Positions 1 to 33,900 of a stretch of 64,000 nucleotides of DNA are shown here, piece after piece. Numbering within the stretch: position 1 is the stretch's first letter; every line of letters starts with the position of its first letter. Origin of the DNA: a virus; the IMG/VR virus record IMGVR_UViG_3300015263_001568, positions 16,100 to 80,099 of that record; one strand, written 5' to 3'. Made by a program: the position numbers and the translations under genes. The notes under the pieces were generated by a model. The model searched no databases. It saw nothing but the letters and a program-made list of their open reading frames with translations, and had not been told where the DNA came from.

Positions 1-333
1 TACGTATGGTTTAGCGGCAGAAGCGTCAACGATGAAGTCGACAGCATCCTTTACACTGGTGAAGTCTGCGTTGGCTTTTCCTACCGTGATGGTCTCAGCA
101 ATATTTCCAACCGTTGTCGGATGCCATGCCGCCCCATCCCACTGATAGATCGTGTGCTCTACAGTGTGCCAGAAAATGTCACCAGTGTTTGGCGCTCCTG
201 GAAGTGCCGCACCACTGGGAATAATCAGTGAATCTACGACCGATAGATTTTCGGTCAGCAGGCGGTCTGGCGAGCCTATTTCTTGATAGCCACGACCAGA
301 GTCATCTATCGATGTCGCTCTACGATCTGCCAT
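1..333 (-). CDS. Putative virion structural / tail fibre-type protein (partial, runs off window start)
   Basis: ATG at 333 directly after the stop of 334..939; open to base 1 (MADRRATSIDDSGRGYQ...PNTGDIFWHTVEHTIYQWDGAAW...ITVGKANADFTSVKDAVD). The GDxW...YxWDGxxW and TVGxxxADFTSI/VxxA patterns are typical of fibre/tailspike proteins. Confidence 0.55.
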   Translation of the reverse strand, partial: MADRRATSIDDSGRGYQEIGSPDRLLTENLSVVDSLIIPSGAALPGAPNTGDIFWHTVEHTIYQWDGAAWHPTTVGNIAETITVGKANADFTSVKDAVDFIVDASAAKPYV

Positions 334-1376: not shown

Positions 1377-2212
1377 CCTTCGTACTTCCGCAAAATGTCT
1401 TGTATGGACGACTTGAACTCGCTTACGCGGCCAAGTAGCAAGTCCGTCAAGTTGATTTCGTGGTTGTATTTGTTGGATTTGAACACACCGGTTAGCGTGT
1501 GGATGTCGCCAGGATTAAGCTGCCGACGTTCGGCGAGCGCATCCAAGTAAGCAGCGCTCAATCGATAGCTCTCGGTCACCGAGCCCGTACCATGATCACT
1601 AGCTGCTATAGACTTGCAGAGGTCGTCTAGCGCTTCGCCTAGACCGTCGGCTTTAGGCACAGGCACAATGGCATAACCGAAATATTCTGTGTATGGGTCT
1701 TGGCGCAGCTTGAAAAACACACCGCCATCGTTGGCTCGAAGCAGACTCTGGATCTTGCGATTCGGGCTGCTGGATGGCTTGTCGGTAGACCACCAGCATC
1801 CGACGAAGACCATGCCTTCAAACTTCAAGCCACGATGCAGCGGCTTTTCCTTGCCCTTGTACGAGTGGCGCTCCAATCGAACGTCGCCCGTGTCTTTGTC
1901 CTTTTTCCAGCGAAAGCCTGGAGGAGGATTATCCTCAATTTCACGGATCAGCTCGGTCACTACATCGCCTACCAGCATGCCAGTTGTAGCCAGCATGCGG
2001 CAGACTTGGAGCTTCAGTTCTTCAGGAATGTAGGGGTGCTCTGCTTGGCGCACCGGAACGTTGCAGCTTAAATTTTCAAGCCACTCGATGACCCTTTCCC
2101 GTGCCAAGCCTAGCTTGTATATCCACGGAAAAATCATCGTCGCCAGGACGTGCGCAATATCGCGCGTCCCGGCTTCCCGGTACACTGCTCCGGCGTATCG
2201 AATACGTAGCAT
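1373..2212 (-). CDS. Hypothetical protein with N-terminal IRYAGAVY tag (possible virion-internal protein)
   Basis: 279 aa; GGAGG RBS upstream; N-terminus carries the same motif as ORFs at 55-64 kb. Confidence 0.7.
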   Translation of the reverse strand: MLRIRYAGAVYREAGTRDIAHVLATMIFPWIYKLGLARERVIEWLENLSCNVPVRQAEHPYIPEELKLQVCRMLATTGMLVGDVVTELIREIEDNPPPGFRWKKDKDTGDVRLERHSYKGKEKPLHRGLKFEGMVFVGCWWSTDKPSSSPNRKIQSLLRANDGGVFFKLRQDPYTEYFGYAIVPVPKADGLGEALDDLCKSIAASDHGTGSVTESYRLSAAYLDALAERRQLNPGDIHTLTGVFKSNKYNHEINLTDLLLGRVSEFKSSIQDILRKYEG

Positions 2213-2233
2213 GTCCCGACCTCCGCCGGGCAG

Positions 2234-3058
2234 CTACTTTAGGCCGGTGCCCTTGAGTGTAACAAGCTTGCGTGCGAAGTCAGGGTCACCGTACATCTTG
2301 GTATAGATGTTGATGAACTCCTGCGTAGACTCCTGGGCGACGCGCGGCGACTTATCGGTGATGTCGACGACGTTACCCTTGTGCACCTGGAGCACTTCAC
2401 CATTGGCGCGCACACGCAGAGTATCGGCGCCGACGAACTCCACCTCACCGAACTGTCGGTAGCCGTCACGGATGAAGGTGATACGATCACCAACATCGTA
2501 GCTCAGCATCCCAGCCTGGTGCAGGTGTGCAAACCGCGGACGATGGTGCGCCGTTCCCTTGCGGATTTTGCGCTGCCGGTTTTCCAAAATGGCAGCGATG
2601 TCATCCCGAGCAACGCGCACCAGGAACTTGTTGCCATTTTCATCCGCCATCGCTTCCCAGATGCGATTGCTCTCATCGGCAAAGCGCTGCGTACCATTGC
2701 TCGCCGTGTGCACGGGGATCATGTGCCGCGCATGGCTGATAGGTGCCAGCTCTGGCTGCTGCACAACAATACCGCTGACAGCGTCAATTTCGCTACCAGT
2801 GGACTTTTCATGCAGCCGCACGCTCTCCAACGCCAGGCGGAGCTGACCCTCAAAGGTGCTGGTGACCCACTGGTCAACCTGACTACCCTTCGGGCGGCCA
2901 AACTGTGCGTTGAACCCGATCAGAACCTTCGCAGAGTGGTCATCCACCACGTCCCAGTCCGACAGATAAAAGTCGGGACGTCCCGACCGAGTGCTGGCCA
3001 CTCGCTCGTTGATTCGGCGGGTGAGCTTGTCCGAGATGGTCTTCAGCAAGTCCGACAT
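2234..3058 (-). CDS. Hypothetical protein with C-terminal KOW/SH3-like barrel
   Basis: Start moved to MSDLL at 3058 (AGGAG upstream); C-terminal YDVGDRITFIRDGYRQFGEVEFVG looks SH3/KOW-like. Confidence 0.65.
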   Translation of the reverse strand: MSDLLKTISDKLTRRINERVASTRSGRPDFYLSDWDVVDDHSAKVLIGFNAQFGRPKGSQVDQWVTSTFEGQLRLALESVRLHEKSTGSEIDAVSGIVVQQPELAPISHARHMIPVHTASNGTQRFADESNRIWEAMADENGNKFLVRVARDDIAAILENRQRKIRKGTAHHRPRFAHLHQAGMLSYDVGDRITFIRDGYRQFGEVEFVGADTLRVRANGEVLQVHKGNVVDITDKSPRVAQESTQEFINIYTKMYGDPDFARKLVTLKGTGLK

Positions 3059-4022: not shown

Positions 4023-4721
4023 TCACTCGACTTCCCAAGAATCGGAACCGTCATCGGTATCGGCTGACGCAAAGTCTAGATCGTCATCGTCTTCCATTGC
4101 GTGCAGCTTTAGCTGAGAAGACTTCTTGGACTTCTTCTTGTCCTTCTTGCTCTTCTTCGCCTTCTTGTCCTTCTTCGGGCGCCCACGCTTCTTGGGAGCC
4201 TCCTCCGTTTCGGCCTCGACGTCCTTGTCCTTCTTCGGGCGCCCGCGCTTCTTAGCAGGAGGAGCCTCGTCAGCCTCGGCGTCCTTGTTCTTCTTCGGAC
4301 GCCCACGCTTCTTGGGAGCCTCGTCAGCCTCGGCGTCCTTGTTCTTCTTCGGGCGCCCGCGCTTCTTGGGAGCCTCTTCCGTGGTCTCAGACTTCCTCGG
4401 GCGCCCGCGCTTCTTGGGAGCCTCTTCGGCCGCAGCAGCAGCCTTCGGAGGACGTCCACGGCGCTTCTGTGGCGCTGGCGCTGTATCGGCACTCTCCGTC
4501 GCTGGAGCGGCAAGTGGCTCCACCTTGTCGATGCTCTGCACATCTGCGGTAGGAATGTACCGCGTGATGCGCTGATGCAGTGCTGGGCGGCCTCGCCCCT
4601 GCTTCACTACAACATCGAATTGGACCTGCACGAAGCTGCTATCCATTCCGAGAAGCAAGCCATCGACGTTTGCCTTCTTACCTTTGAGGGTTACGCTTAC
4701 CTGTTCGGCCTTCTTTGGCAT
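4023..4721 (-). CDS. Multi-AT-hook (HMGA-like) DNA-binding protein
   Basis: Six K[KR]RGRP[PRK]K AT-hooks plus one GRGRP; acidic C-terminal tail (EDDDDLDFASADTDDGSDSWEVE); GGAGG RBS. Confidence 0.85.
   Translation of the reverse strand: MPKKAEQVSVTLKGKKANVDGLLLGMDSSFVQVQFDVVVKQGRGRPALHQRITRYIPTADVQSIDKVEPLAAPATESADTAPAPQKRRGRPPKAAAAAEEAPKKRGRPRKSETTEEAPKKRGRPKKNKDAEADEAPKKRGRPKKNKDAEADEAPPAKKRGRPKKDKDVEAETEEAPKKRGRPKKDKKAKKSKKDKKKSKKSSQLKLHAMEDDDDLDFASADTDDGSDSWEVE
4140..4470. repeat. Imperfect coding tandem repeats (~50-65 bp) encoding AT-hook units
   Basis: Recurring ttcttcgggcgcccgcgcttcttgggagcctc units. Confidence 0.8.
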
Positions 4722-4751
4722 TTTGCCTCCTATCGTCTGCCGACTGTCTGT

Positions 4752-6347
4752 CTATGTGAGGTCTTCACGTAGTCGAATGAATCGGTTAAATCGTCCAATC
4801 GCAACTTCTGTCTTATCACCTTGAACGCGAAAGTCAACCTTCATCCCAACGATGTCTTTGCGTTTTTGCCAGTACGTCATACGCTGGTCGTTATCCGACG
4901 CATGAGCAAACCCCCCACCAACATGAAATTGGCGCCCTTTGTACTTCACCACAAAGTAGCCGAGGCGCTCACCATAACGGTACGAGCAATGCCCCTTCCG
5001 ATGCGTAGAAATCCGGCGGTCCGTCGCATCACTAATAGCTTCACGTAGTTCGGCGCTAAGTGCCCGCGGCCGATCTACAGAACAATGCAAGTACGAACCA
5101 TCGTCTTCGACAGATCCCCACTCCTCCATGATGGCACGTACCTTCTTGACGTCTGCCTTGGAGGCACCCGCGTGCTTGCCCTTACCCGCCACCGCATCAA
5201 CGATGGTACCGGTCACATCATCCTCTGGCTTCAACTTCAGGCACAGGTCGGTACGCTTGAACACATGTGGTGCCTTGGGGTCTTTGACCATGATGCCTTC
5301 AAACGATTGGTCGAGGCACCAATCGTAGTAGGCTTGCATCTCGTCCACGTCCAACACCATCCGATGCGCCAGAATCCACACATTGCTGGAAAATTTGGCA
5401 ACGCGCTTGGCTTTTTGCCAATTGGCTACCGTTGACAATAGCGCCCTTTTACGACGGCTCCACGCCACGTCAAACGATCCGCGCATGTAGTTTGGCAGCC
5501 AGGACCAATCGAATAGCACGCAGCGCACTTCCTTCAAAAAGTCGCGCTTGTTGAAGTTCTTTGTGCTGCGGATCAAACTTGACGTACGGTTCCAGCTTCC
5601 ATCCACTGCCAGAAATTCACCGTCCAAAAAGACGGGTTTGTCTTCGCGCGTCTTGGTGATGCGGTTAAGCGCGCGAGCGATATCACAGAGCTGCGAAGAA
5701 AATTCCGCTACCTGCTCGATGTGCTCACGGCGCTTATTTCCGCGCGTGTAAATGTGAATGCGCTGCTCAGCCGGAAAGGCAAATACCAATGCGCGCTCGC
5801 CATCCAGCTTGGGCTCCACCGCCAAGGGAAAACGTGGGCGCTTGCTGCCCTTGTAGACGTCTTCGTACTTCTTTGCCAGCAAGCAGCCGTTAAAGCTCCA
5901 TCCGCGGTCTTTTTCCTCGGTAGAACGCCAGAAGTCCTTTCCCCAAATCTTGGTGATGGTCTTTTTGCTTACACCGATACGTAAATCGTGGTTGAGGATG
6001 CGGCGAAACCACTTCGCGAGATGCTTGGGAACCGACACCAGTAGCCGGTCTGTAGCCATGGAGGCTGTCTGCCCAGTCATTTCGCGTGACGTCAAAGCCT
6101 TTGCCAAGCGCACGAACTTGTCCCACGCTTCCCGCTCATCGGGAACCGTTACCGCCGGGACAAGGTTGGCAGTAGGATGCACATGGTACATGTCGCCACC
6201 GAGTGCCATCAAGACAATGGTACGCAGCAACTGGTTGTCTTTTTCCTGCTCCAAGACAGTCTCTTTGGAGAGGCGACTAGACATGTTCTCCATGTGATCG
6301 AGAGCCTTAATAGCGGCCTCGATTTCTGCCTTCGTGACGCGCGGCAT
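4752..6347 (-). CDS. lig: ATP-dependent DNA ligase
   Basis: EPKLDGER adenylation motif, LDGEF, EGIMVK, LKLKP, C-terminal OB fold (VGGGF). Confidence 0.95.
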   Translation of the reverse strand: MPRVTKAEIEAAIKALDHMENMSSRLSKETVLEQEKDNQLLRTIVLMALGGDMYHVHPTANLVPAVTVPDEREAWDKFVRLAKALTSREMTGQTASMATDRLLVSVPKHLAKWFRRILNHDLRIGVSKKTITKIWGKDFWRSTEEKDRGWSFNGCLLAKKYEDVYKGSKRPRFPLAVEPKLDGERALVFAFPAEQRIHIYTRGNKRREHIEQVAEFSSQLCDIARALNRITKTREDKPVFLDGEFLAVDGSWNRTSSLIRSTKNFNKRDFLKEVRCVLFDWSWLPNYMRGSFDVAWSRRKRALLSTVANWQKAKRVAKFSSNVWILAHRMVLDVDEMQAYYDWCLDQSFEGIMVKDPKAPHVFKRTDLCLKLKPEDDVTGTIVDAVAGKGKHAGASKADVKKVRAIMEEWGSVEDDGSYLHCSVDRPRALSAELREAISDATDRRISTHRKGHCSYRYGERLGYFVVKYKGRQFHVGGGFAHASDNDQRMTYWQKRKDIVGMKVDFRVQGDKTEVAIGRFNRFIRLREDLT

Positions 6348-8865: not shown

Positions 8866-11295
8866 TTAGCTTCGATCGTAGCGTGCTGCAATTTGTTGAT
8901 AGCGCGCAGGGATGCCGCCTCTATACAGCGTTGACTCATTATTTTCGCGAACAGCCCACCACACTTGGTCCCAAACGGGATCTGCCAAAACTTCAGGCCG
9001 ATGGCTTACGACGAACACCGAGCCGAACTTTTGGCGCAGCATGCCTAGGATGCTGATCAAGCCAGCCGTCCCCTGCGGGTCGAGGCTTCCAAATGGTTCG
9101 TCTACAATGAGCACGTTTGTCGATGACTCTGTGTAGCGCTCTTTAAGGTCTCGCATACCAAACAGCATTGCCAATCCACTTTTGTGCTGCTCGCCTCCAG
9201 ATAGCAAGCTGCTACGCGTGGCAATATTACCATCTCGGCGACGGAGTTGGAATTGTATCGCATCCATGCTCTCTGACAACTCCAAGTCCACCGTGCGTCG
9301 GGGCCAGAGCACACTACTATACACCGGTACAGTAGTCTCAGTCGCGTCCTGCAAGATGGCGCGAAATCGATCTTGCTTGAGACCTTGGCTGCCGAATGCT
9401 TTCTTGAGGGCCTCCAGGCAGCGCTTGTTGCGCAGGATGCCAGTACCCTTAGCCAACCCCTTACGGACTTGAGCAAGCCGTGCCTGGAGCGTCTCCGATG
9501 CGCTGAGGCGCTCTTCCAGGATGGCTATCTGCCGACTCAGGTCTTCGGTCTGCGCAGTAGCGGAGCTGACGATCTTCTCGGCTCTGGCTAGCTGCTCCGC
9601 AGTCTGCTCGCGATTGCCTTTGGGAAGATCATCCATCTGGTCAATCCGAGTGCGCACCCGAGCAATAGCCTTCGCTCGTCGGCGCAGAGCGTTCGCCTTT
9701 TTGTGCAACCCGGCGATCTGCTCTTCTGGAACCGTACCGCGTGCATCTATTTCTTGTATCTGAATCTCAAGATCGTGCTTTTGCTGCGAAATTTCTTTTT
9801 CAGCCACCAGTTCTTTTTCCCGCTTGGTGGCTGTACGGATATCGCGCTGCACCTCTACCGGTGTGCGGGTGGTATCGATGGACTTGAGCCGTGCAGCTAA
9901 CTGCTCATACTTTTCTGAAGTTTCTAGCGCCGACTTGGCAGCGAATATTTCCTTCTTGACTTTACGCAGCTGCTGTCGGGCACCGCGCAGCTTTTCCCGC
10001 AGTGCTTCTGGATCGCTTTTTGTGTCGAGAGGGCGGTGGCACGTTGGGCAAACGCTCTTGTCTAAATGGCGTACTGTTACCTCTATCTCACGCTCTAGCG
10101 CCCCTTCTTCACGCATATACGCTTCTACTTGCTTGCGCAGCGGCTCAACATTTTCAGGCGGCTTGTCGAGTCCGGCCAGCTCTTCCGTGATTTCGTATCG
10201 CTGCTCAGCCTGTGGTAGCTCGGTATTTTGTAGGTAGCGCAGCTGTGACTTTACTTCGCTCAAGTCGGTGTCGATGTCCGCTAAGGCACGTCCAGACAGC
10301 TTGGACAGCTGGCGCTCAAGAATGTCTCTTCGTTGCGCTGCTTCACGTTGACGTTGCGCTGTATGATATGCATCCGACGCATCGGTGGCTTGTTGGTCGA
10401 TGGATTCGACTTCGGCGTCATCGATATCCGACGGTTTGTCGTACCATTTCCCGAGGTCTGCATCGTCCCAGATCACTCTGACCTGCTCAATAAGTTGCTT
10501 GCGCTGGTCGAGCTGGTTCAAGCGATCTCGTAGCTCCCGTGATTCCTGTACAGCCGCGTTGGACTCTGTGCGCAGCTCTTTTAGCTGGCGCTTGCGCTTC
10601 TTGAGTCTGGAACGCATTTTGTCGACATCACCAATATCGCCAGCGCGCGCTTCGAGGCTACCCAACTCGCGTTCCAAAGCCTCGATGTCGACCAAGCTAG
10701 TGGCCACGGATTTTTCACGGTCTCGGAAAATGGCGTACATGTTGTCGAAGACATCAAGCCCAAACATCTCTGTCAGGCGTTTGTAGCGATCGCTTCGCTT
10801 ACCATGCAGTAGCACATGGCTTAGCTTCTGCGGCAGGTACACCAAGTTGAAAAAGCTTGTGTCATCCAGACCTAGGTGAGCCTCACGGATCCATTTATGC
10901 GGCGCACGCGCAGCTCTGCTCGGAATGATGTTTTGGCCTGTGGACGTGTCCACAACACGGATCGCATCACCGTGAAGCGTGTGCTTACGATATTGTCGAA
11001 TTTCAAACGGGCGGCCATCTACGCGGTATTTTAGCACCGCCTCGAAGTCTTTTCCCGCAAGGTCGTTGACAACGTCGTTCTTGGAAAATTCCTGGCCCGA
11101 GCCTCGACCTCCGTAGCCTACCTGGATACTGGAAAATATTTCCCACAGTGAGGTTTTTCCACAAGCCAGGAAGCCACCATCGTCTACGTTCAATCCGCGC
11201 ACCAACACCAACCCTTGACCATCCAACGGTAAGTCGCAGTGGCGGTAGACGTAGCCGTTTTTGAACGTCAGGTGATCGTACTGAATGTGCGGCAT
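8866..11295 (-). CDS. sbcC: SbcC/Rad50/gp46-like SMC ATPase
   Basis: Walker A (CGKTS), long coiled coil, CPTC zinc hook, LSGGE signature, IVDEPFGSLD Walker B/D-loop, VSH H-loop. Confidence 0.93.
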   Translation of the reverse strand: MPHIQYDHLTFKNGYVYRHCDLPLDGQGLVLVRGLNVDDGGFLACGKTSLWEIFSSIQVGYGGRGSGQEFSKNDVVNDLAGKDFEAVLKYRVDGRPFEIRQYRKHTLHGDAIRVVDTSTGQNIIPSRAARAPHKWIREAHLGLDDTSFFNLVYLPQKLSHVLLHGKRSDRYKRLTEMFGLDVFDNMYAIFRDREKSVATSLVDIEALERELGSLEARAGDIGDVDKMRSRLKKRKRQLKELRTESNAAVQESRELRDRLNQLDQRKQLIEQVRVIWDDADLGKWYDKPSDIDDAEVESIDQQATDASDAYHTAQRQREAAQRRDILERQLSKLSGRALADIDTDLSEVKSQLRYLQNTELPQAEQRYEITEELAGLDKPPENVEPLRKQVEAYMREEGALEREIEVTVRHLDKSVCPTCHRPLDTKSDPEALREKLRGARQQLRKVKKEIFAAKSALETSEKYEQLAARLKSIDTTRTPVEVQRDIRTATKREKELVAEKEISQQKHDLEIQIQEIDARGTVPEEQIAGLHKKANALRRRAKAIARVRTRIDQMDDLPKGNREQTAEQLARAEKIVSSATAQTEDLSRQIAILEERLSASETLQARLAQVRKGLAKGTGILRNKRCLEALKKAFGSQGLKQDRFRAILQDATETTVPVYSSVLWPRRTVDLELSESMDAIQFQLRRRDGNIATRSSLLSGGEQHKSGLAMLFGMRDLKERYTESSTNVLIVDEPFGSLDPQGTAGLISILGMLRQKFGSVFVVSHRPEVLADPVWDQVWWAVRENNESTLYRGGIPARYQQIAARYDRS

Positions 11296-11819
11296 TATGG
11301 TGTGGGTTTCTTCGGCTTCTTCGGTTTAGTGGCGGTGCTCTTAGGCTTGCTAGTTTTCGTCTTCGTTGTCTTTGCTTTACTCGTCGGCTTTACGACAGAG
11401 GTACTTTCTGCTTTTGGTTTGCGCTTAGTGGTGCGCTTTACCGGCGGAGGCGGTTCTTCCACAGTAGGAACTTCTGGTGCAGTAGGAACTTCTGGGGCAG
11501 CTTCTATGACAACTGTAGTTTCTGGCTCGATGATGGGCGTATCGATCGGCTCGGGGATGACGTCTTCCAGCACTTCTGGTGGCAAAGGCGCCATTTTTGC
11601 TTGTGCCAGCTCCAACAAACGAATGAAGTCCCCCATCAATACAAGGCGCCGGCCACGGCCCACCAAACCAGACCGCAGATGCTGCTCCTGGTCTTCACGT
11701 AGCTGCATCACTACATAGACGTTGTTGACATCCTCTTCAATAGCAGCCGCCAGATCACGGGCGTTCCTGCTAGAGAGAAATGCAGCCAACGTCACATGTG
11801 GGTCAGATTTTTCAGACAT
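11295..11819 (-). CDS. Hypothetical protein with Pro/Glu-rich and Lys/Thr-rich C-terminal tail
   Basis: Start MSEKS at 11819; low-complexity basic tail (KTTKTKTSKPKSTATKPKKPKKPTP). Confidence 0.65.
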   Translation of the reverse strand: MSEKSDPHVTLAAFLSSRNARDLAAAIEEDVNNVYVVMQLREDQEQHLRSGLVGRGRRLVLMGDFIRLLELAQAKMAPLPPEVLEDVIPEPIDTPIIEPETTVVIEAAPEVPTAPEVPTVEEPPPPVKRTTKRKPKAESTSVVKPTSKAKTTKTKTSKPKSTATKPKKPKKPTP

Positions 11820-11820
11820 C

Positions 11821-12042
11821 TTACCCACCTGTCAGTAGCGCAATGTACGGGACCAACTCAGCTGGAACAGGGTCTAGGGTTACGTTGGTGGATGGGTAAT
11901 CAGCGCAGTTAGTATTTGTGCAGACAGCTTTAGTCACCACAAAATGGAACACTGTGTTTTCAGGCTCCACATCTGTGCGGCGCACTTCACTTCCCGTGAC
12001 CATGAAATTGGTGTGGTTGCCGCAGACATTGCAAGTTGGCAT
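11821..12042 (-). CDS. Small zinc-ribbon protein
   Basis: CNVC...CTNTNC; 73 aa; GGAG RBS. Confidence 0.65.
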   Translation of the reverse strand: MPTCNVCGNHTNFMVTGSEVRRTDVEPENTVFHFVVTKAVCTNTNCADYPSTNVTLDPVPAELVPYIALLTGG

Positions 12043-12045
12043 TTC

Positions 12046-13248
12046 CTACTCTCCTTTACGCCGACGAGGTTTCTCTGACCAGGAAGACGTCACCGCAATG
12101 GCGCGCAACGTAGCCATATCGAGTAAGCCATGCTGGCTAGCGTACGATCGAGAGCGCTCTTGCACTCCGAGGAAAATGTCCAGCAGCTTGGCAATGTCTT
12201 GTATCTTCGCTACGTCGTGGTGCCCGTTTGGTAAACTAACACCTTTAAGATACCACGAATTTTGACTTATAGGAAGACGGCTTGGCTCCACCCAAGTGTA
12301 GAGAATTTGCTGAATGGTGGTGATCACACGGTTCAGAAAGAATACTAGGTCTACGGAGTCCGCCATGGCCTTTTGTACAGCAGCGAGCGTCTGCTCATAT
12401 CGACCTTGGAACAACCCATCTACATACTGCTGCACGATGACGTAGCTGGCATAAGACTCCGACTCCTCCAGCACCTTCGGCAGCAGCGTTTCTAGGTCGA
12501 CTTTTCCATCAGCAACTTCCACAGCGTTTCTGAGCTGCGATAGCAAGGTCAGCGCATCTCTTGGATGACCGGCTGAAATTTCCGCGATCTTCTTCAGCCC
12601 TGTCTTCAGCTCTGCTTTCTTGAGCCCACTAGTGTGCAGTTCTTCTGCTTTGGCCACCCGCGCGAGCAGGCGATAGCACTCTGGCACCGTGACTGGGTTT
12701 AGATGGTAGCGTTGGCAACGGCTCAGAATGGTGCGCGGCACCAATTCCGGATTGGTGGTGCACAGAATAAAGCGCGTTCTCGGTGGTGGTTCCTCAAATA
12801 TCTTGAGCGCTGCTTGAAACGCGTCTTTGGTGATCTGGTGAGCTTCATCGAAGATGTACACCCGAAAGCGGCCAAAGCGCGGGGCGTACGCGATGTGCTG
12901 TTTCAGATCGCGAATATCACCGATGCCGCGGTTCGAGGCTGCGTTGATTTCCACAACGTCTGGGTGCTCCCCTTCACCACGGATGGCTTTCAACATGATT
13001 TTGCAGCTTGGGCATTCACCACAAGGCTCTTCCGCTGACTTTCGGCACACCAGATAGCGAGCGATCAAACGCGAGAAGCTGGTCTTGCCGGAGGAGTATG
13101 GGCCACTGAACAGAATCGTTGGAGCGATCCGCCCAGACTTGAGCATGCCACGGATATTATCCACGACATGTTCTTGGCCGATGACTTCCTCTAGCGTGGT
13201 TGGTCGATACTTGTTTGCGAGGCTTTTCGATTCCATTTGTCTAGTCAT
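12046..13248 (-). CDS. dnaX: DNA polymerase III gamma/tau-like clamp loader
   Basis: LANKYRP, GQEHV, GPYSSGKTS, CGECPSC, EINAASNRGI, IFDEAH, ILSRC motifs. Confidence 0.95.
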   Translation of the reverse strand: MTRQMESKSLANKYRPTTLEEVIGQEHVVDNIRGMLKSGRIAPTILFSGPYSSGKTSFSRLIARYLVCRKSAEEPCGECPSCKIMLKAIRGEGEHPDVVEINAASNRGIGDIRDLKQHIAYAPRFGRFRVYIFDEAHQITKDAFQAALKIFEEPPPRTRFILCTTNPELVPRTILSRCQRYHLNPVTVPECYRLLARVAKAEELHTSGLKKAELKTGLKKIAEISAGHPRDALTLLSQLRNAVEVADGKVDLETLLPKVLEESESYASYVIVQQYVDGLFQGRYEQTLAAVQKAMADSVDLVFFLNRVITTIQQILYTWVEPSRLPISQNSWYLKGVSLPNGHHDVAKIQDIAKLLDIFLGVQERSRSYASQHGLLDMATLRAIAVTSSWSEKPRRRKGE

Positions 13249-14302
13249 CCTCGTAGGGGTTGCTGAAGGAAACACCTAGTTCCTTTGCCGCCGCGTCGAC
13301 GAACTTGAACGCGTGTGGCAAATACTCCTCCGGCAGACCAGCTTGCAGCAGTGTGTTGTCCAACCCGTCGAAAATGCCATGCACTCGGCGCGCATTCTGT
13401 GGAAGCGCTCGCGCCGGCATCTCTTCTCCAGGTTCAACATTCATCGGTAAAGGCATGGTGGACGTGGGCATCGCGTGGAGCTTCACAAAAGCTTCAGCCG
13501 CGCTAGGCCACACGTCAGGAACTTCATGTAGTTCAATCAGCTTGGTAGAACGTATTGGGACGTATTTCGGATTCGTTGGATCGGCGGTATCGACGACCAA
13601 AACGCCTTTGTCGAGGTCTTCTCCAAATCTCGTTTGGTGCGGTGCGCCGCAGTACCACGCATTGGGCAAAATCGACTGCCGTTTATGGATGTCTCCAAGT
13701 GCCCAATAAGTAACGCCGTCGATCGGTTCCAAGTGCACTTGCGCATTCGACGTCACCATGAGCCCAGTATCCGTTTTGCTACCCACCACATTTTCATGCA
13801 GCACGACAATGATTGGCTCACGATGACGCTGCGCATACCGCACCATCGAGTGCACCATCAAGTAGACCTCTGCATCCTTCCACCCGTGACTGGGATCTCT
13901 AGCGGGAAACAGAAGCAGCTGACATCCATGCATCGACTTTATCAATGGCAAGCCGTCATGAATGAAATGCTTCCCCAAAATGTCGGTCATCCGGCTCAAG
14001 TAGCTAAGCGACGTATCCCCAATTTGACTTGAACGCACATCATGGTTCCCGCTGATCATCACGATGGGAACCGGCGACGACGCCAGCCAGTCCGTGAGGA
14101 CTTGTCGTTCTTGATGCAGGATGTCGCGGCGTTCCCAAATGTCACCAGCAACGATGGTAAAGTCGACGCGGTGCTTTCTAGCCGCCTTATGTATGCCCTC
14201 CAACGTCTGCACCATCCGACGCAAATACGCGGCCTGACTATGATCAGAGAACCGCCGCAGCGCATTGATGTGCAAATCGGACGTATGCAGAAACCTAGGC
14301 AT
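13241..14302 (-). CDS. sbcD: SbcD/Mre11/gp47-like metallophosphoesterase nuclease
   Basis: LHTSDLH, AGD, GNHD and LGDIH motifs; near sbcC. Confidence 0.92.
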   Translation of the reverse strand: MPRFLHTSDLHINALRRFSDHSQAAYLRRMVQTLEGIHKAARKHRVDFTIVAGDIWERRDILHQERQVLTDWLASSPVPIVMISGNHDVRSSQIGDTSLSYLSRMTDILGKHFIHDGLPLIKSMHGCQLLLFPARDPSHGWKDAEVYLMVHSMVRYAQRHREPIIVVLHENVVGSKTDTGLMVTSNAQVHLEPIDGVTYWALGDIHKRQSILPNAWYCGAPHQTRFGEDLDKGVLVVDTADPTNPKYVPIRSTKLIELHEVPDVWPSAAEAFVKLHAMPTSTMPLPMNVEPGEEMPARALPQNARRVHGIFDGLDNTLLQAGLPEEYLPHAFKFVDAAAKELGVSFSNPYEDD

Positions 14303-14676
14303 CAGAGGTCGTGCGGCCGAGCCGTCTTGCGCGCATTCTCCTGCACGCGCTTTACAGCCTTCAGCATCATGCCATAGACTTCGTGGGCAAGAGCGCTGGT
14401 AAGCTTGGGATCGATGCGCACGTCGTGGTACTTGAAGTATTCCTTGATTTTAGAAGCGGTCAGGATCTTGACGCCCATCTCCTTAACGGCCTTCTGGTGC
14501 GCCTCCAACCGAGCGCGCTTGTCATTGCTCTGAGCCGACCCATCAGCACCCTTCTTGGACTTCTTTTTCTTCTTTGCCACAGGAGCATCACCCTCGGTCT
14601 TTGCCTTCTTCTTTTTCTTCTTCGCTGTGGTGGCGTCGCCGTCGGTGATGGTCTTCTTAGTCTTCTTTTTCTTCAT
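14302..14676 (-). CDS. Bacterial-type histone with Lys-rich N-terminal tail (internal start)
   Basis: AAGGAG 8 nt upstream of the in-frame ATG at 14676; 124 aa. C-terminal ILTASKIKEYFKYHDVRIDPKLTSALAHEVYGMMLKAVKRVQENARKTARPHDL matches the histone-fold pattern (a1, RI loop, a2, RKT loop, short a3 ending DL). Confidence 0.8.
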   Translation of the reverse strand: MKKKKTKKTITDGDATTAKKKKKKAKTEGDAPVAKKKKKSKKGADGSAQSNDKRARLEAHQKAVKEMGVKILTASKIKEYFKYHDVRIDPKLTSALAHEVYGMMLKAVKRVQENARKTARPHDL

Positions 14677-15219
14677 TGAGTCGGCTCCTTGTCCATGCCG
14701 TTTATGATGACATGGTATGCAGAGTGTGCGCATGTTAGCGAGGTCACATTGTCCTCCACCTTGATGCACAGGAATGATGTGGTCGGCATCCCAATAGCCC
14801 CGAGATTTTCGTGCCCCACGCGGTGCTCCCAAGATACGCTGCCAATGCATGGCATCGATAGTGCGCTCGGCAGACACAGTGTCGAGACCGCATTCTGCGC
14901 ATATACCACGGTCGCGAGAGTAGACTTGTCTGCGTAGATATCTCGGATCGCTACGGAGTTTGAACTCTTCCACACAATGGTCTGAGCAAAACGTGCGGCG
15001 CCCTTTCGGCACCTCGATTTTGCAGTAGCGGCAGAGGCTGCGGCCGTTCGCACCTTTGGGCAATAGCTGCGGGTAGCGAACACGTCCGCGGAACGCGCCA
15101 CTACGCATAGTGCCGTCTGCCTCAAAGTACATTTTCGTGTACTGTGCACGTAGTTGCTCAACCTCTGTGTCAGACAGCGCACTTAAAGGCCGACGGCGTC
15201 TTCGATGGCGTTTTCTCAT
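14302..15219 (-). CDS. HNH endonuclease reading in frame into a histone-fold domain
   Basis: CRYC...FCSDHC, RDRGICAEC, WDADHIIPVHQGGG...NMRTLCIPCHHK HNH motif; no stop before the histone domain. Confidence 0.8.
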   Translation of the reverse strand: MRKRHRRRRRPLSALSDTEVEQLRAQYTKMYFEADGTMRSGAFRGRVRYPQLLPKGANGRSLCRYCKIEVPKGRRTFCSDHCVEEFKLRSDPRYLRRQVYSRDRGICAECGLDTVSAERTIDAMHWQRILGAPRGARKSRGYWDADHIIPVHQGGGQCDLANMRTLCIPCHHKRHGQGADSMKKKKTKKTITDGDATTAKKKKKKAKTEGDAPVAKKKKKSKKGADGSAQSNDKRARLEAHQKAVKEMGVKILTASKIKEYFKYHDVRIDPKLTSALAHEVYGMMLKAVKRVQENARKTARPHDL

Positions 15220-15630
15220 CGGCTAGTATTTGCTGCGCATAGCGACCTGGAAACGTTACAGGATTTATCTTTCGCAACATGGTCAAAATCGCTTTGGATG
15301 GCTTTACCCAACCTAACGCCAGTGCTGACAGCGCAATTGTTTGCAGGTTCTCGTCATTCAGGCATTCACGAAGAATGATCTGCTGCTGCCGCATGTCGGA
15401 AACAAGCACGCCAAGATACACTTCCAAGGCTTGTCCACGCAGCAGAAAGTCCAGATTAGTATCTCGGATGAGGGCACGTATTTGGCGTCCGGTTCCTTTG
15501 TCATCCGAAATGATGGCGTCTTCTAGCTGCGCCAGTGCGCTTTATACTCTCGTGGTCGATCCTCCAAGAGCAAGTAGCGAACTTGTTCCAATACTGATTC
15601 CGGTGGTGATGTTGCATTAACTGGTAGCAT
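15170..15630 (-). pseudogene. Hypothetical gene apparently split by a one-base frameshift near 15541
   Basis: Coupled ATG at 15630 (TAATG) gives MLPVNATS...REYK then an early TAG; a protein-like frame (SALAQLEDAIISDDKG...) begins at that point, shifted -1. Confidence 0.5.
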
Positions 15631-16598
15631 TAAGACCTATGCAAAATAGCTCCTACTGGAAGCTTGGTGCTCTTCCAGCCTCGGTGCTTTTGTAGTTCCT
15701 CAACGTAGACTACCGCGGCCCCCTGTAGGCCACCGAGCTGCTGGAGCACCGCAGCAGCACGATCACGCGATGGTCGTGCCCAGAATACCGTATTCGAGCC
15801 GTCGTAGAAACTCGTGACTTTTTCAATGGGCGAATGGTCGATTTGCATCGTGAGCAGCCGCCCATGTACATCGCCCAAGCGACTATCGATCAAGTCAAGC
15901 TGCTGGTAGAAAGCTGCTGCTTGACGCCGATCAAACGCCTCTTCTGGATGCCGAGGTTGCAGCAAGCCTGTACGTCGCCGGAGACCGGCTACAAGCTGTC
16001 GCCGTGCTTCCAGGTAGAAGGCCCATATGGTTGCCGACAAAGGCTTCCTATGGGCCTCTACAGGCGTCCAGGTAGCAAGCCAGACATCCTGCGCAGCGAC
16101 CGGCATCAGCCGACTCAGGGCAAACAAGCGCTGCCGTTCAACGCCCGTGCGCAGTGCATGAAAGAGGCCGAAGGCTAAACTATTGATATCATTGAAAACT
16201 TCAATGGACGAAGGCGGAAACCCAAGCCAAGGCGGACTGCCGTTACCGAGAAGGTCTACGCGCGTGCGAAATGCCTTCCAAAATGGCTCGACCACTTCTT
16301 CGACCGCACCTTTCGTGGTGAGCCACTTTGACACACTTTCTGCCCAACGAGTAGCCTTTGCCGCAGCGAGCACGAGGACGTTTCGCTGGGCATCCTGTAA
16401 ACGCTGTAGGAAGCTCTTGAGGTCACTCAAGGGTTTCGCTACCTGCCAGGTACCACTGGGGCCTTCCTTGGCGCCTCGTGGCGTCCAGGAGGCATCCCAA
16501 GACTGTGCTGCATGGATAGTGCAGTGTGGCCCGCCGTTGCGCTTGCCGTGGATGACGCACACAGTGTCCGCAAGGCTATTCGTCATCGTCATCGGCAT
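15630..16598 (-). CDS. Hypothetical protein
   Basis: 322 aa ORF directly downstream of recA. Confidence 0.65.
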   Translation of the reverse strand: MPMTMTNSLADTVCVIHGKRNGGPHCTIHAAQSWDASWTPRGAKEGPSGTWQVAKPLSDLKSFLQRLQDAQRNVLVLAAAKATRWAESVSKWLTTKGAVEEVVEPFWKAFRTRVDLLGNGSPPWLGFPPSSIEVFNDINSLAFGLFHALRTGVERQRLFALSRLMPVAAQDVWLATWTPVEAHRKPLSATIWAFYLEARRQLVAGLRRRTGLLQPRHPEEAFDRRQAAAFYQQLDLIDSRLGDVHGRLLTMQIDHSPIEKVTSFYDGSNTVFWARPSRDRAAAVLQQLGGLQGAAVVYVEELQKHRGWKSTKLPVGAILHRS

Positions 16599-17865
16599 AA
16601 TAGCGGGACCGCGGAGCTGCGTCTGTCTTCGATTTGGTCTTCTTGGCTTTCTTTGATTTTTTGGTAACAGCTGTCGTTTCTATGACAATTGGAGTCTTCG
16701 TACGCGGCTTCTTGGTGGTAGCCGTCGCAACCACATCCTCTCCATAGTCCTTGTCGAAGTTGTACGTACGATTACCAGAAATCTCAAAAAAGCGGTCGTA
16801 GTTTTCAGGCTGCTGCAACATCAGAAAGAACTTCTGTCGATTGCGCGGACTGTAGCTCATCTTACGAAACGATGGCAGGTCCCACTTCTTGTTATCGAGG
16901 CCCTTGAGGTTGATCGAACGCCTTCCAGCCGCCGTCTTCAAAAATCCCAAGGCTGCCAAGAATTGCTGCGTGTCGTACGCCTTATCCACGCCATGGCCTG
17001 GGATGATCTGCAAATCAACGGTGAGCCAACTAGGAAAGCACTTGTTCTTTGTGGTGCGCACCGTCGCCGGAATAATTTGGACACCCATACTATCCCGGCT
17101 CTCTTTTCCAAGTGTCTTGTCACTGCGTCGACTTACGCGCAGCTTGTAGTCCGGATAAAATCGCAGCGCTTTTCCGCCAGTTTCTTGGTCAGGGGCACCA
17201 TAGGCACCAATGTTGCTCCGCACTTGATTTGTGCCGACCAACACGCCGCCTTTTTTGCGCAGGCGTACCTTAATTTGCTTCAGGTACTGACTATGCATCC
17301 TAGGCTCCGGTGTGATGCCACCACCCGTGCCTGTTTCCTCATCCACGTTTTCACTGCTCAATGCCGCAAAACTGTCGACAAAAAATGCGATAGTTGGAGG
17401 ACCCGACGTCACATCCGGCATCCGATTAAGCGTGCGCATGATGAGGCGATATGTGTCTTCTCCCGTGTCAGGCTGTGCGTAGTAAAAAGACGCGTACTTC
17501 TGCTTACCAACGCTTAGCTTGTGCTCAATCCGTAGTCCTTGCCGCTGCATGAACACAGGATCGGCACCAGTTTCTGGATCGAGGAACACTACAGGAATGC
17601 CTTGTAGCTGTGCCGACACGGCAATTTCTTGTAGTAAGGTAGATTTACCAACGTGTTCTCCGCCAAAGATGGTGCAGAACCGACCACGCTGAAGTCCGCC
17701 ACCGAAAATCAAATCCAGCGATAGGACACCTGTAGAAAGGCAGTCGAGGACACGCTGACCTTTCATCAGATTGATTGGGTCTAATCCATCAATGGAGGCA
17801 AACGCTTCGGCAACAGCCTGAGAAGGATGTACCAGGTTGTATTCGCGCTTTTTCTTTTTCGCCAT
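16576..17865 (-). CDS. recA: RecA/UvsX-like recombinase
   Basis: STGVLSLDLIFGGGL, GGEHVGKST, VDSFAAL, NQVR, GGKALRFY motifs. Confidence 0.95.
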   Translation of the reverse strand: MAKKKKREYNLVHPSQAVAEAFASIDGLDPINLMKGQRVLDCLSTGVLSLDLIFGGGLQRGRFCTIFGGEHVGKSTLLQEIAVSAQLQGIPVVFLDPETGADPVFMQRQGLRIEHKLSVGKQKYASFYYAQPDTGEDTYRLIMRTLNRMPDVTSGPPTIAFFVDSFAALSSENVDEETGTGGGITPEPRMHSQYLKQIKVRLRKKGGVLVGTNQVRSNIGAYGAPDQETGGKALRFYPDYKLRVSRRSDKTLGKESRDSMGVQIIPATVRTTKNKCFPSWLTVDLQIIPGHGVDKAYDTQQFLAALGFLKTAAGRRSINLKGLDNKKWDLPSFRKMSYSPRNRQKFFLMLQQPENYDRFFEISGNRTYNFDKDYGEDVVATATTKKPRTKTPIVIETTAVTKKSKKAKKTKSKTDAAPRSRYYADDDDE

Positions 17866-30439: not shown

Positions 30440-30943
30440 TTGAGCCCGCGTATCGCCATCTCGACTACTGGCTACCCCGTCAAGACGGGTGTGGCAACGG
30501 AGATACAGGTTGGTAGCCTCCGTCACCTTCTACAAGCCGCGGAGAGCCTCGCTGAGCAGCCCTACCGGCTTGTGGCTATCTACCCCTTTGGCCAACCTCG
30601 AAAAGCCGTATACGACGTCCTAGACAGCCTGGAGAAGTCCCTTTGCTCTGCCAAGGTGCTGGTGGTCTGCCGGCACGGCGCGCAGGCCATAGTGCCCGAC
30701 TTCCTTCAGCCGCACCAACGGCTCCGGCGGCCAAACGGGCACATCGATGTCATGGTCCACGTTGACCGTGACTTGGCGTGGGAGCCGCCCACGAATCTTT
30801 CGCTCGACATCCATCCGACGACAGGGCGATTCAGCCGCTGGGCTATTCAACAAGGCTTGGTGCCGATCGTTCTGCGCCGGATAACGTCTGTTCAAAAGTG
30901 CAAGGACCTCTACAACCTTCTAACCGCTGAGGCAGCTCTATGA
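30440..30943 (+). CDS. Hypothetical protein
   Basis: AAGGAG 9 nt before the TTG at 30440; ATGA overlap with nrdJ. Confidence 0.6.
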   Translation: MSPRIAISTTGYPVKTGVATEIQVGSLRHLLQAAESLAEQPYRLVAIYPFGQPRKAVYDVLDSLEKSLCSAKVLVVCRHGAQAIVPDFLQPHQRLRRPNGHIDVMVHVDRDLAWEPPTNLSLDIHPTTGRFSRWAIQQGLVPIVLRRITSVQKCKDLYNLLTAEAAL

Positions 30944-33900
30944 TCCAAGCGACCTATCAACAGCGAATCATGCTCGACCGCTACGCGCAGAAGGACCCGC
31001 ACGCAAAGCCAAAGGAAGGCGACTTGGTCATCGTCAAGATGACGCGCTCTTTTTCTTTGGATGGCGAGGAGATCACATCGCGTGAGCTTGGGCAAATTAC
31101 CGAGGTCACCAATGGCGGCGGACCGGCACGCTACACTGTCGAGCTGGAAAATGAGATCGTAGCCGATCTCGATCGTAGCCGTGTAGAAGTCATCGTTGAA
31201 AAGACACCCGAGGACATCTGGCAGCGCTTGGCCAACGGCATCTGCAAAGCTGAATTTCTATATCTCAGCAATCCTCCGGACAGCCTTGCCTGGCAGCACA
31301 TTCAGTACCAGCTTGATCAAGCCGTGCTCCCGGACCAATGGAAGCCCATCCGGGAATTCCGCGACAAAGTCTATTCGGCGTTGTCACGCAATGAGTTCAT
31401 TCCAGCCGGTAGAATCCAAGTTGGCCTCGGTCGAGAAGACCTCACGCTGACCCTGTTCAACTGCTACGTGCTGCCGCGACCTGAAGATTCTAGGCACGGC
31501 ATCACACGCCGCTGGGGTGAGATGTTCGAGATTTTCGCGCGTGGCGGCGGTATTGGATTTGACGTTAGCAGCATGCGCCCCGCCGGTGCGCCAGTTGCCA
31601 AAGTCAGTGGGCGATCCAGCGGCGCCATCAGTTGGATGGAGCAATGGAGCCAAGTCACCGGAGAAGTGGAGCAGGGCGGCTGCTTTTCTGGCAATACACG
31701 CATTGCCACCACCAAAGGTTTAATCCGCGCAGAGGATCTAGCGAACCGTATTGACGCCGGCGCGCCGCACTGTGTGTATACGCATTCTCGTCCTCCAAGA
31801 CACGTCACGCACGTTTTCCGAAATGGCCAGAAACGATTCTTTCGCGTGACCACCAAACGTGGCTATGAAATCGAAGTCACGGGTGACCACAAGATGGGTG
31901 TGCTCAAAGAAGGGCGCATTGAAACGGTGCCGCTAAAGCACCTTTCTGTTGGCGACAATGTGCTTCTATTGCTTCCAAAATGCCAATTCCCCGAGAAGTC
32001 CGCTGTGGAGTTGTCGGCAATCGACTACGAAAAGCCAAAGATGAGCACCACGCTCAACGAAGACGTGCGCTTTCCAATCACACTAAATGGGAAGCTCGCG
32101 TATGTACTCGGCTACATGTACGGCAACGGTAGCGTCATCATGGGCAAGAAAGTCACATGGTCGTCGCCCAAAGGCATTTCGATGTCCGTGCCAACCAGTC
32201 GAGAAGACATTGCATGCAAACTGCAAGATTATATCCTCGACTGTTTTGGAGTGGTCGCCGAAATGGAGCCAGGCGACGGAGCCTGCGTGAATGTGAAACT
32301 GTACTCGCGCATCGTGGTGGAGTGGCTGAATACGAATGGCCTACTGAAGAAAAAAGCTGCGGATATCCGTGTACCCGAGCAGATATTTCATGCACCGGAA
32401 ACGGTAGTCAGCTCATTCGTTTCCGGCTACTTCGACGCAGATGGATCCGACCGCGGCATCAAAGGAGGCTACGGATTCGACTCTATCAGCAAAGGTATGC
32501 TGCAAGACGTGCAGAAGATTCTAGCCAGCTTTGGCATCGCTGCCAAGCTACGTCCAGAAGACCGGTCTTCTACAGGGTGGAGCACCCTCTACAGACTATC
32601 TGTAACGGGACCCGTATTTAAGGAACGCTTCATGGACTTCGCACGCTGGTCGATGAAGGCACAGCGACATACATCCAGGCGTGACACGAACATGTACCCG
32701 ATGGAAGCCTTCAAATCGTGCCAGGTGGATCCCAAGCTCTATAAAGGCTTGGTAGCAATTTCCTATGACGTGGTCTCGTATGCTGCGGTTAGCCGCGTTT
32801 TGGATCGCGCCGGTGATGAAGGACTGGGTGGGTCTGAACAGGCTGCCAAGATGGACGCACTGCTAAACGTTCTACCGGATGCCATTGATAGCATCGAAGA
32901 CGTCGGCATGATGGACGCTTTTGACTTTGAAGTCGATGAAGTCCACATGCTCAGCGGCGATGGATTCTACACCTCGAATTCCCGAAGAGGCGCTACGCTC
33001 TTTGGTATCGCGCCTTGGCATCCTGATGTCGAGCGCTTCATCGAGGTCAAGTCGGAGCGCAGCGCTTTCCGCATGTCGGGTGACGAGCTGCTTCAAAGCC
33101 TCAACCCCGAGATCATGGAGCAGTTCGGCGCACAGCTTCGTAAAATCTTCGTTGGGAAGGAAGATGCTGCCTCGATCAGCCGCAGCAAAGACCTCATCAA
33201 GAACGCCAATATCAGCGTGCTGTTCACCGAGGCGTTCATGGATGCCGTCGAGCGCGATGACTACTGGGACTTCGTTTTCCCTGACACCTCAGATCCGGAG
33301 TACGACGCCATCTGGCATGGTGACATCGAGGCTTGGCGCGCGTTGGGCAAGCCCGTCATCCACTACGGCACCAAGAAGGCACGTGATCTTTGGTACCGCC
33401 TCATCGACCGTGCGTGGGCGTCGGGAGAGCCAGGTGTCCTTTTTGTCGATAGAATGAACGAAATGAGCAATAGCTGGTACTATGCGCCCATAGAGTGCAC
33501 AAACCCGTGCGTTACCGGTGATTCGCTCATCTACACCAGCCGCGGTCTGATCACGGTGGACGATCTGATGGCGGAGCGCACGCAGCCCCAATATCTTGTC
33601 GACAGCCGCTTCGGCTACGAGCCTACATTTTCTGAAGGCACCAAATTCTGGTGCTCGGGTGAGAAGCCCATCTATCGTCTAGAGACTAAAGAAGGCTACA
33701 CCATCCGCGCCACAGCCGACCACAAGATCATGACGTCGCGCGGGTGGGTGCAACTTGCGAAGTTAAAGGAAGGCGACAAAGTGCACATCGCCAATCGCGG
33801 TGGCGCTTTCGGAAAAGAAGGCACGCTAGAGTTCGGCCGCGTCTTGGGCTGGTTCATTGGCGATGGATATTTCACTGGTGAAAAAGCCATATTGGATTTC

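Follow-up and report, generated by a model that had tools for sequence, protein, structure and literature searches.

We describe a phage histone gene, and an HNH nuclease frame that reads into it, in a 64,000-nt stretch of viral DNA (positions 16,100 to 80,099 of IMG/VR record IMGVR_UViG_3300015263_001568), the whole of which is called the window below (GC 0.542). The record is 80,099 bp long, and CheckV rates it as ~23% complete. The window was found in a single sequencing run, a marine-sediment metagenome that is probably its source, and no RNA run was among the matches. The source is an uncultured marine-sediment jumbo phage. Its genome belongs to the Caudoviricetes, as indicated by the viral record, by phage-type UvsX, SbcCD and clamp-loader families and by a complete syntenic relative with terminal repeats. 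The locus itself consists of one long minus-strand frame, within which a shorter gene begins, and a stretch of DNA upstream of it:

14302..15219, minus strand: a continuous 305-aa frame (P0001), uninterrupted by a stop, that encodes an HNH domain, a Lys-rich tract and a histone fold.
14677..15219, minus strand: the HNH part, residues 1-181 of the 305-aa open reading frame (ORF), with a zinc ribbon and a ZRANB3-like HNH core at residues ~48-181; it lacks a stop and a clear Shine-Dalgarno (SD) sequence.
14302..14676, minus strand: the histone gene (P0002, 124 aa), taken as the ancestral unit, with free-standing orthologs at the same position in the related loci L005, L002, L006 and L009.
14685..14690, minus strand: an SD-like AAGGAG, 8 nt (CCGACTCA) before ATG 14676 and within the codons G-Q-G-A of the long ORF.
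14539..14676, minus strand: a Lys-rich disordered N-terminal tail, residues 1-46 of the 124-aa protein, with pLDDT 55-64 and no secondary structure in the AlphaFold2 (AF2) model.
14467..14538, minus strand: an extra basic N-terminal helix, α0, residues 47-70, which AF2 predicts as a helix with pLDDT 84-89.
14305..14466, minus strand: an α3-type (face-to-face, FtF) histone fold, residues 71-124, identified by profile matches, AF2, Foldseek and a four-copy model.
15220..15629, minus strand: a 410-nt stretch with no confident gene, probably within an insert, with GC 0.495 against 0.542 for the window.

The 124-codon frame runs on the minus strand from ATG 14676 to the TGA at 14304-14302, and this stop overlaps the ATG of the following SbcD gene by one base. 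An earlier note on this DNA had proposed that the frame encodes a bacterial-type histone with a eukaryote-like, Lys-rich tail. The elements it listed (AAGGAG, the 8-nt spacing, ATG 14676 and the 124-aa frame) are all present on the minus strand, and the segments KKKKTKK, AKKKKKKAK, AKKKKKSKK, DKRARLEAHQKAVKEM, ASKIKEYFK, DVRID and the C-terminal ARKTARPHDL all occur as written. In the protein, three Lys runs occupy the first 42 residues and are followed by DKRARLEAHQKAVKEM, ASKIKEYFKYHDVRID, a long stretch with hydrophobic periodicity and the ARKTARPHDL end.

Profile matches, an AF2 model and Foldseek all point to the proposed short-α3 prokaryotic histone fold, and it carries an RxTxxxxD motif. 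Run on a 27-row alignment, AF2 places α1 at residues 74-83, α2 at 92-113, and a one-turn α3 at 121-123 after loop 2, with pLDDT >90 across the fold. The parts of the fold are α1, L1, α2, L2 carrying R116-x-T118-x4-D123, and the one-turn α3. The Lys-rich tail and the extra helix predicted by the earlier note are recovered in this model, but the tail comprises 46 rather than ~50 residues and α2 comprises 22 rather than ~24. In the PDB, the best single-sequence phmmer matches among all chains are the archaeal histone HTkC (9f2c, E 2.9e-4) and the Leptospira histone HLp (9qt0, E 7e-3). A family profile built from 25 relatives matches the same structures with E-values of 2.3e-18 for HLp, 1.4e-12 for HTkC and 8.7e-9 for the Bdellovibrio histone HBb (Bd0055). 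Foldseek returns them in the same order, with HLp first (rmsd 0.7 Å, target TM 0.90) and HLp and HTkC both at rmsd 0.7-1.0 Å.

An exhaustive HMMER search with residues 55-124 against 1.84 billion representatives produced 34 matches at E <= 1e-3. Nearly all are proteins of 65-128 aa that end in N-x-R-K-T-V-R-P-x-D-L, many with Lys-rich N-termini. Three long matches (P0079, P0082 and P0100) are incoherent mixtures of Pfam fragments and were rejected as spurious. The near mode of a word-index protein search with the fold region found the query only. Among the family members, P0076 and P0077 are tandem double histone-fold proteins of 148-150 aa with a hydrophobic, signal-peptide-like start; for a histone-fold doublet, secretion or membrane anchoring would be unusual. 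Further doublets (P0073, P0074, P0087 and P0099) occur without a signal-like segment.

FtF histones were defined by Schwab et al. 2024 (PMC11390915), and the conserved residues of the window protein place it with the tetrameric members of that type. HLp is a tetrameric bacterial FtF histone that wraps ~60 bp; R49, N53 and R55 are its conserved tetramer residues, R55 and D62 form its RD clamp, and R59, K21, K15, S14 and K17 are the main contributors to its DNA-binding energy (PMC12701072). With residues mapped through the HMMER alignment to HLp and the HLp numbering of PMC12701072, R49/N53/R55 correspond to R110/N114/R116 of the window protein, the RD clamp corresponds to R116-D123, and S14, K15, K17, K21 and R59 correspond to S75, K76, K78, K82 and R120. 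All of these positions are conserved. In the family alignments, R110, T118 and D123 are invariant and N114 and R116 nearly so, and the stretch from loop 2 to α3 reads R116-K-T118-A-R-P-H-D123.

Modeling is consistent with this assignment. For a model of four copies of residues 55-124 the ipSAE was 0.92, whereas none of three controls rose above 0.00. The calibration mark for this score, reached by 20 of 30 one-chain-pair structures and by 1 of 23 single-chain ones, is a rough guide because a custom alignment and a four-chain model were used. Contacts were identical (100%) among three runs, with partner pLDDT >= 94. The model shows extensive handshake-dimer contacts, with α0 packed on the dimer partner, and a second interface formed by K106, K109, R110, E113, N114, R116, R120, H122 and D123. 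This second interface is the one through which the HLp tetramer is held together. The score shows likeness to this architecture and may reflect model memory, as the HLp and HTkC tetramers were already solved. On the residue pattern and the models taken together, we assign the histone to the tetrameric FtF type and not to the dimeric Bd0055 type.

The last point revises the earlier note, which had likened the protein to Bd0055. HBb/Bd0055 (Bdellovibrio bacteriovorus, PDB 8CMP and 8FVX) does share the short α2, the RKT loop and the truncated α3. It is nonetheless strictly dimeric and has S where HLp has R49 and D where HLp has N53, so that two of the three tetramer residues kept in the window protein are missing from it. 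The profile E-value to HBb is also 10 orders of magnitude weaker than that to HLp, and HLp and HTkC are the closest histones. Membership of the dimer class was rejected on the R110/N114 versus S/D difference and the modeled dimer-dimer interface. HLp (Leptospira perolatii, PDB 9QT0-9QT2; PMC12701072) is the best profile and structural match and shares the tetramer, clamp and DNA-contacting residues; the two proteins are 32% identical, and HLp is a short-tailed cellular chromatin protein that lacks α0 and whose L1 residues T27 and G29, as well as K54, are not conserved in the window protein. HTkC (Thermococcus kodakarensis, PDB 9F2C; PMC11390915) is the best single-sequence PDB match and shares the fold and the N-x-R-x-T-x4-D pattern, but is archaeal and tailless.

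Histones of this kind have already been catalogued in viruses. A computational study of phage metagenomes in 2025 described viral FtF histone-fold proteins (VFFHFPs) in tailed phages; AlphaFold predicts tetramers for them, and their N-terminal tails are rich in Lys and 5-40 aa long (PMC13681535). The window histone belongs to this published VFFHFP/FtF class. It is likewise phage-encoded, with an FtF α3 fold, a predicted tetramer and a Lys-rich N-terminal tail, and, the window being part of an IMG/VR record, it may already sit in that catalogue. It differs in its N-terminal region, where a 46-residue tail followed by a 24-residue helix exceeds the 5-40 aa reported. The published account of VFFHFPs is without gene context, a link to SbcD or UvsX, an HNH fusion or experiments (PMC13681535). 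Schwab et al. 2024 (PMC11390915) also set apart a class of 'phage histones' from tailed-phage metagenomes, in which the fold is N-terminal, a long tetramerization helix lies at the C-terminus and the RxTxxxD motif is missing. These are also α3-type histone folds of tailed phages, but the window protein was excluded from that class because its fold is C-terminal and ends at α3 and the motif is present.

Two ideas about the tail also need to be modified. Bacterial histones had been described as mostly tailless, but most bacterial FtF histones have positively charged tails (PMC11390915) and Lys-tailed viral ones are published (PMC13681535). Nor does the tail resemble that of a eukaryotic core histone, being an A/K-rich, low-complexity tract of the H1 kind. 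Its three K runs recur at a period of ~16 residues, and the region of 73 aa that precedes α1 carries a net charge of +18. Long basic regions before α1 recur in the family (57-77 residues, net charge +16 to +27, in P0072, P0081, P0085, P0094 and P0096), and the 46-aa tail lies at the long end for the class. The tail can be read as three units of ~16 residues, each a K run followed by an acidic spacer resembling T/E-G-D-A. Tandem Repeats Finder (TRF) found no DNA-level tandem repeat beneath this periodicity; if the units arose by duplication, they have diverged. The Lys-rich tails of two relatives contain AT-hook cores, RGRPKG or GRPKG (P0085, encoded at L009 2705-3034, and P0072), which suggests from their sequence that tails bind the minor groove in part of the family. 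Within α0, the closest relatives all share H60 and E66, numbered H6 and E12 in the 70-aa fragment.

The genes surrounding the histone belong to a replication and recombination module:

20119-21495: sigma factor (PHROG 351, 2.7e-27; Pfam Sigma70_r2, 3.6e-10).
16576-17865, minus strand: UvsX/RecA-like recombinase (PHROG 97, 6.9e-47; Pfam RecA, 3.6e-30).
15630-16598, minus strand: 322-aa protein without a known family, which matches a 346-aa protein of L005 (E 1e-15).
13241..14302, minus strand: SbcD/Mre11-like nuclease (PHROG 100, 2.2e-22; Pfam Metallophos, 5.5e-12), 46% identical to the L005 ortholog.
12046-13275, minus strand: clamp loader (PHROG 5846, 1e-69).
Within 8866..13275, minus strand: two small genes without a family, between the clamp loader and SbcC.
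8866-11295, minus strand: SbcC/Rad50-like protein (PHROG 77, 1e-58).

Scans of viral and metagenome sequence yielded relatives of this locus in IMG/VR (L005, 349,793 bp; L002-L004, 22-36 kb; L009, 221,679 bp) and in a metagenome (L006, 10 kb). The 349,793-bp relative has terminal repeats and is rated complete. Every relative examined (L002-L006 and L009) encodes a free-standing histone of 82-109 aa, downstream of a UvsX-like gene and immediately upstream of an SbcD-like gene, with 13-75 nt between them. The relatives represent four divergent lineages, with 35-48% identity for the histone, 41-48% for SbcD and GC of 0.37-0.54. Gene order is the same in the window and in the 349,793-bp genome (sigma factor, acidic-tailed SSB-like protein, small protein, UvsX, ~330-aa protein, histone, SbcD, clamp loader, SbcC), and the downstream order of SbcD, clamp loader and the SbcC module is shared by L005, L002 and L006. 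Each genome has one histone-fold gene.

The viral record and the syntenic relatives, a complete phage among them, agree with the earlier note that the histone is phage-encoded, and its UvsX/RecA, SbcD, clamp-loader and SbcC neighbors agree that it lies in a replication module. More specifically, its address before SbcD places it in a recombination-dependent replication module and not among structural genes. Deposited phage genomes offer little comparison: tblastn against 50,697 of them returned no histone match and only distant matches to SbcD, at 26-28% identity, in Brochothrix and Listeria phages. Related-locus scans seeded with a single fragment, P0075, P0068, the HNH part or alignment A8 yielded no relative. 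A scan of genome contigs likewise found no histone relative; being limited by its search pattern, it says nothing on absence from cells.

Comparison with the relatives also bears on where the histone starts. AAGGAG precedes the ATG of the free-standing orthologs by 7 nt in L005 and by 6 nt in L002, AGGAGG precedes the histone start in L006, and the L005 and L002 proteins open with M-A-(A/E)-K-K-K/R. By itself the motif is not rare in the window, where AAGGAG-N5-10-ATG occurs five times when 2.5 would be expected, a count that is attained in 13 of 100 shuffles; it carries weight because it is conserved upstream of the orthologs. Since the window retains the SD and ATG of the orthologs inside the long frame, we take ATG 14676 to be the ancestral start. 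An IMG gene caller also called the 124-aa form. No promoter, terminator or RNA-fold signal rose above background around this internal start, and no Rfam family matched within 14000-16000.

The earlier note was silent on one point: upstream of ATG 14676 the frame continues without a stop through another 181 codons, to ATG 15219. The 124-aa protein is the internal-start product of this longer open frame. The added codons encode a protein that matches Pfam HNH (PF01844, 7.5e-8; 32.8 bits against a cutoff of 21.4), PHROG 11604 (7.7e-20) and the HNH domain of ZRANB3 (PDB 5mkw, 1.5e-11). Residues D146, H147, N162 and H171 and the cysteines C107/C110/C167/C170 are invariant in the HNH family alignment and all are kept here. 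By its sequence, this part belongs to the HNH endonucleases with a ββα-metal core. It resembles the ZRANB3-type HNH endonucleases and the 'McrA-like' HNH proteins of ~170 aa from bacteria and phages (PHROG 11604) in combining a zinc ribbon and an HNH with all invariant residues, but unlike them it lacks the C-terminal 20-30 residues and the stop and is fused in frame to the histone. All 65 length-matched HNH homologs cover only the HNH part; they are mostly ~170 aa long and start near residue 35-38. The homologs extend 20-30 residues past CxxCH, whereas here the Met of the histone comes after 10. We looked for the C-terminal helix of the family in all three frames at the junction, and none of them encodes it. 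No other HNH-histone fusion was found among the homologs and relatives searched. In an AF2 model of the 305-aa form, made from a merged HNH and histone alignment, pLDDT falls below 50 at residues 133-183, which we attribute to the mixed alignment.

Because neither the complete relative G001 nor fragments L002-L004 contain an HNH homolog, while the flanking genes are orthologous, we conclude that the HNH was inserted. The insert is ~950 bp (about 14691-15629), lies between the 322-aa gene and the histone and carries the HNH and, probably, the 410-nt stretch. That stretch contains ORFs of 35, 48 and 85 aa in different frames, to none of which a family could be assigned, and has no Rfam match.

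Which products the merged frame gives is a question on which several lines of evidence divide. Both gene calls are public, the 124-aa and the 305-aa, from the 80-kb IMG contig and from a 112,193-bp IMG/Logan contig with an identical 305-aa product. The occurrence of one 305-aa product in IMG and Logan speaks against an assembly or sequencing artefact, in which the run-on would stem from the loss of a stop or from a 1-nt indel close to where the two parts meet. Such an artefact would suit the origin of the frame in assembled sequence from a single metagenome sample, and the +1 frame does end in CAA TGA, whose stop and the start of the histone would overlap in the classic ATGA arrangement. The +1 frame is nevertheless unlike the HNH family C-terminus and the junction is not a homopolymer, and we consider an artefact highly improbable.

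A doubtful but serious contender is that only the 124-aa histone matters, the HNH being a recent selfish or decaying gene with no effective start, so that the fusion is made rarely or never. ATG 15219 and the later ATGs, at residues 30 and 38, all lack an SD-like motif, the nearest approach being a weak GAGG 12 nt upstream of the third. The HNH is missing from all relatives and has lost its C-terminal helix and stop, the 410 nt upstream of it are geneless and lower in GC, and the 124-aa start is the one picked by the IMG caller. All 181 codons of the HNH are nonetheless open, with all invariant catalytic and zinc-ligand positions kept, which argues against long decay. The missing SD is itself weak evidence, since about two-thirds of the genes in the window have no obvious SD at the start of their longest ORF.

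The converse, that the functional product is the 305-aa fusion, with the Lys linker and histone fold as its DNA-binding or oligomerization module and the internal ATG as a relic, strikes us as rather improbable. The frame is continuous in the gene calls of two assemblies, and the basic C-terminal helix of the HNH is replaced by the basic tail. A nuclease fused to a non-specific DNA binder is, moreover, a common design. Every ortholog, on the other hand, stands alone as a gene behind the same SD and ATG, and a phage with the fusion only would differ from all its relatives in lacking a free histone. Apart from the three spurious long matches, the proteins recovered by the exhaustive HMMER search are short; a word search in 'longer' mode turned up no fused form, although this is weak evidence. 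Whether the window phage makes both the 124-aa protein and the fusion we rate as nearly an even question, leaning slightly toward no.

Taken as a whole, the best explanation is probably that the last 375 nt of the frame encode a phage FtF histone in a UvsX-SbcD module, that an HNH was inserted upstream of it and that the merged frame gives two products. The ancestral state would have been a free-standing gene that began at ATG 14676 with its own SD. The arrival upstream of a ZRANB3-like HNH, lacking its C-terminal helix and stop, would be peculiar to this phage, and the HNH would now read through the old 5' leader. Initiation at the HNH would give an HNH-histone fusion of 305 aa (or ~268 aa), and initiation at the SD and ATG 14676 would give the 124-aa histone.

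At the protein level, two chains would form a handshake dimer, and two dimers would pair through the end of α2, loop 2 and α3 (R110, N114, R116, H122 and D123) to form a closed tetramer like those of HLp and HTkC. The rim of this tetramer, with S75/K76/K78/K82 of α1 and R120 of loop 2, would presumably bind DNA independently of sequence and could wrap ~60 bp, as the same surface of HLp does. The 46-residue Lys tail and the basic α0 may add non-specific affinity for phosphates or for neighboring duplexes. The stop/start overlap suggests that the histone is read together with SbcD. Most likely, it would coat, bend or compact replicating phage DNA, or organize DNA for UvsX and SbcCD. The modification of the tail that the earlier note raised is purely speculative, and a shield against host nucleases would be a further hypothetical role.

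Several points weigh against this explanation. The 124-aa protein itself has no histone family in Pfam, NCBIfam or PHROGs, and the Pfam histone models DUF1931 (PF09123) and CBFD_NFYB_HMF (PF00808) do not match it even at E 10. The earlier note had suggested a comparison with these two models; in favor of the histone reading, 7 of 25 relatives match DUF1931 and 6 of 25 match CBFD_NFYB_HMF, at sub-threshold to weak levels. The Foldseek E-value is only ~5e-3, the domain being short. The tetramer is predicted, in a family whose tetramers had already been solved, and α0, which is not in HLp or HTkC, could alter the oligomer or the DNA path. Phage FtF histones in general are known from computation only. 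As for the run-on, the frame comes from one sample and is known from assembled sequence only, the IMG and Logan assemblies probably sharing the same reads, and the choice between the starts at 15219 and 14676 rests on sequence features. Finally, the adjacency to SbcD could be an order inherited within one phage clade and not a sign of functional coupling.

The invariant place of the gene directly upstream of SbcD in four divergent lineages, together with the stop/start overlap in the window, also invites a different view of its function, namely that the histone fold serves mainly as a protein-protein adaptor or cofactor of SbcCD or UvsX and not as a general DNA coat. Histone folds do serve as adaptors in NF-Y, the TAFs and CENP-T/W. 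Conservation of the five main DNA-energy residues of HLp and of the homotetramer interface is against this, as are the DNA-binding AT-hook motifs in the tails of relatives, and the place before SbcD may simply be inherited; we consider a mainly adaptor role unlikely. A bolder and decidedly improbable variant is that fusion and free chains co-assemble in mixed FtF tetramers that tether a structure-specific nuclease of the ZRANB3 kind, the HNH, to histone-coated DNA, with the histone acting as an architectural cofactor of Mre11-Rad50/UvsX rather than as a bulk packager. If true, the cofactor reading would explain the fixed place before SbcD in divergent jumbo phages.

Phage histones raise the question of whether large phages organize their own DNA or remodel that of the host with chromatin-like proteins. 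To this question the locus contributes a well-supported 124-aa candidate with a 70-aa core, a long tail, a conserved α0 and a reproducible address next to SbcD/Mre11, which points to recombination-dependent replication rather than to virion packaging. The HNH run-on provides a natural example of a mobile nuclease gene fusing to a DNA-binding module. No new category is opened, the class having been catalogued in 2025 (PMC13681535), and what is new here (the address before SbcD, the HNH run-on, and the long tail with α0) is modest.

Other proteins encoded near the module or in its relatives have features of their own. A 232-aa protein in the same minus-strand block (window 4023-4721, minus strand) contains multiple AT-hooks (Pfam AT_hook, 1.4e-11) and matches no PHROG. 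Beside the UvsX block, a 582-aa protein without Pfam or PHROG matches (window 18299-20047, minus strand) consists of K-rich blocks followed by ~200 residues that are almost purely D/E. Its positional counterpart in the complete relative G001 (L010 8787-10079, plus strand) shares an N-terminal Cys motif and has an acidic tail of Ser/Asp/Gly-Trp repeats, and L009 encodes a poly-Asp tract at the corresponding position (1-327, plus strand). It is conceivable that the acidic 582-aa protein is a partner of the basic histone tail, and a chaperone role for the neighboring acidic proteins would be equally hypothetical. Between UvsX and the histone, L009 encodes a weakly macro-domain-like protein (2172-2675, plus strand; E 2e-4, just below the Pfam cutoff), and after SbcD it encodes a DHH/DHHA1 (RecJ-like) phosphoesterase (4144-5064, plus strand). 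Elsewhere in the window, an ORF of 2201 aa occupies 30940-37545 on the plus strand.

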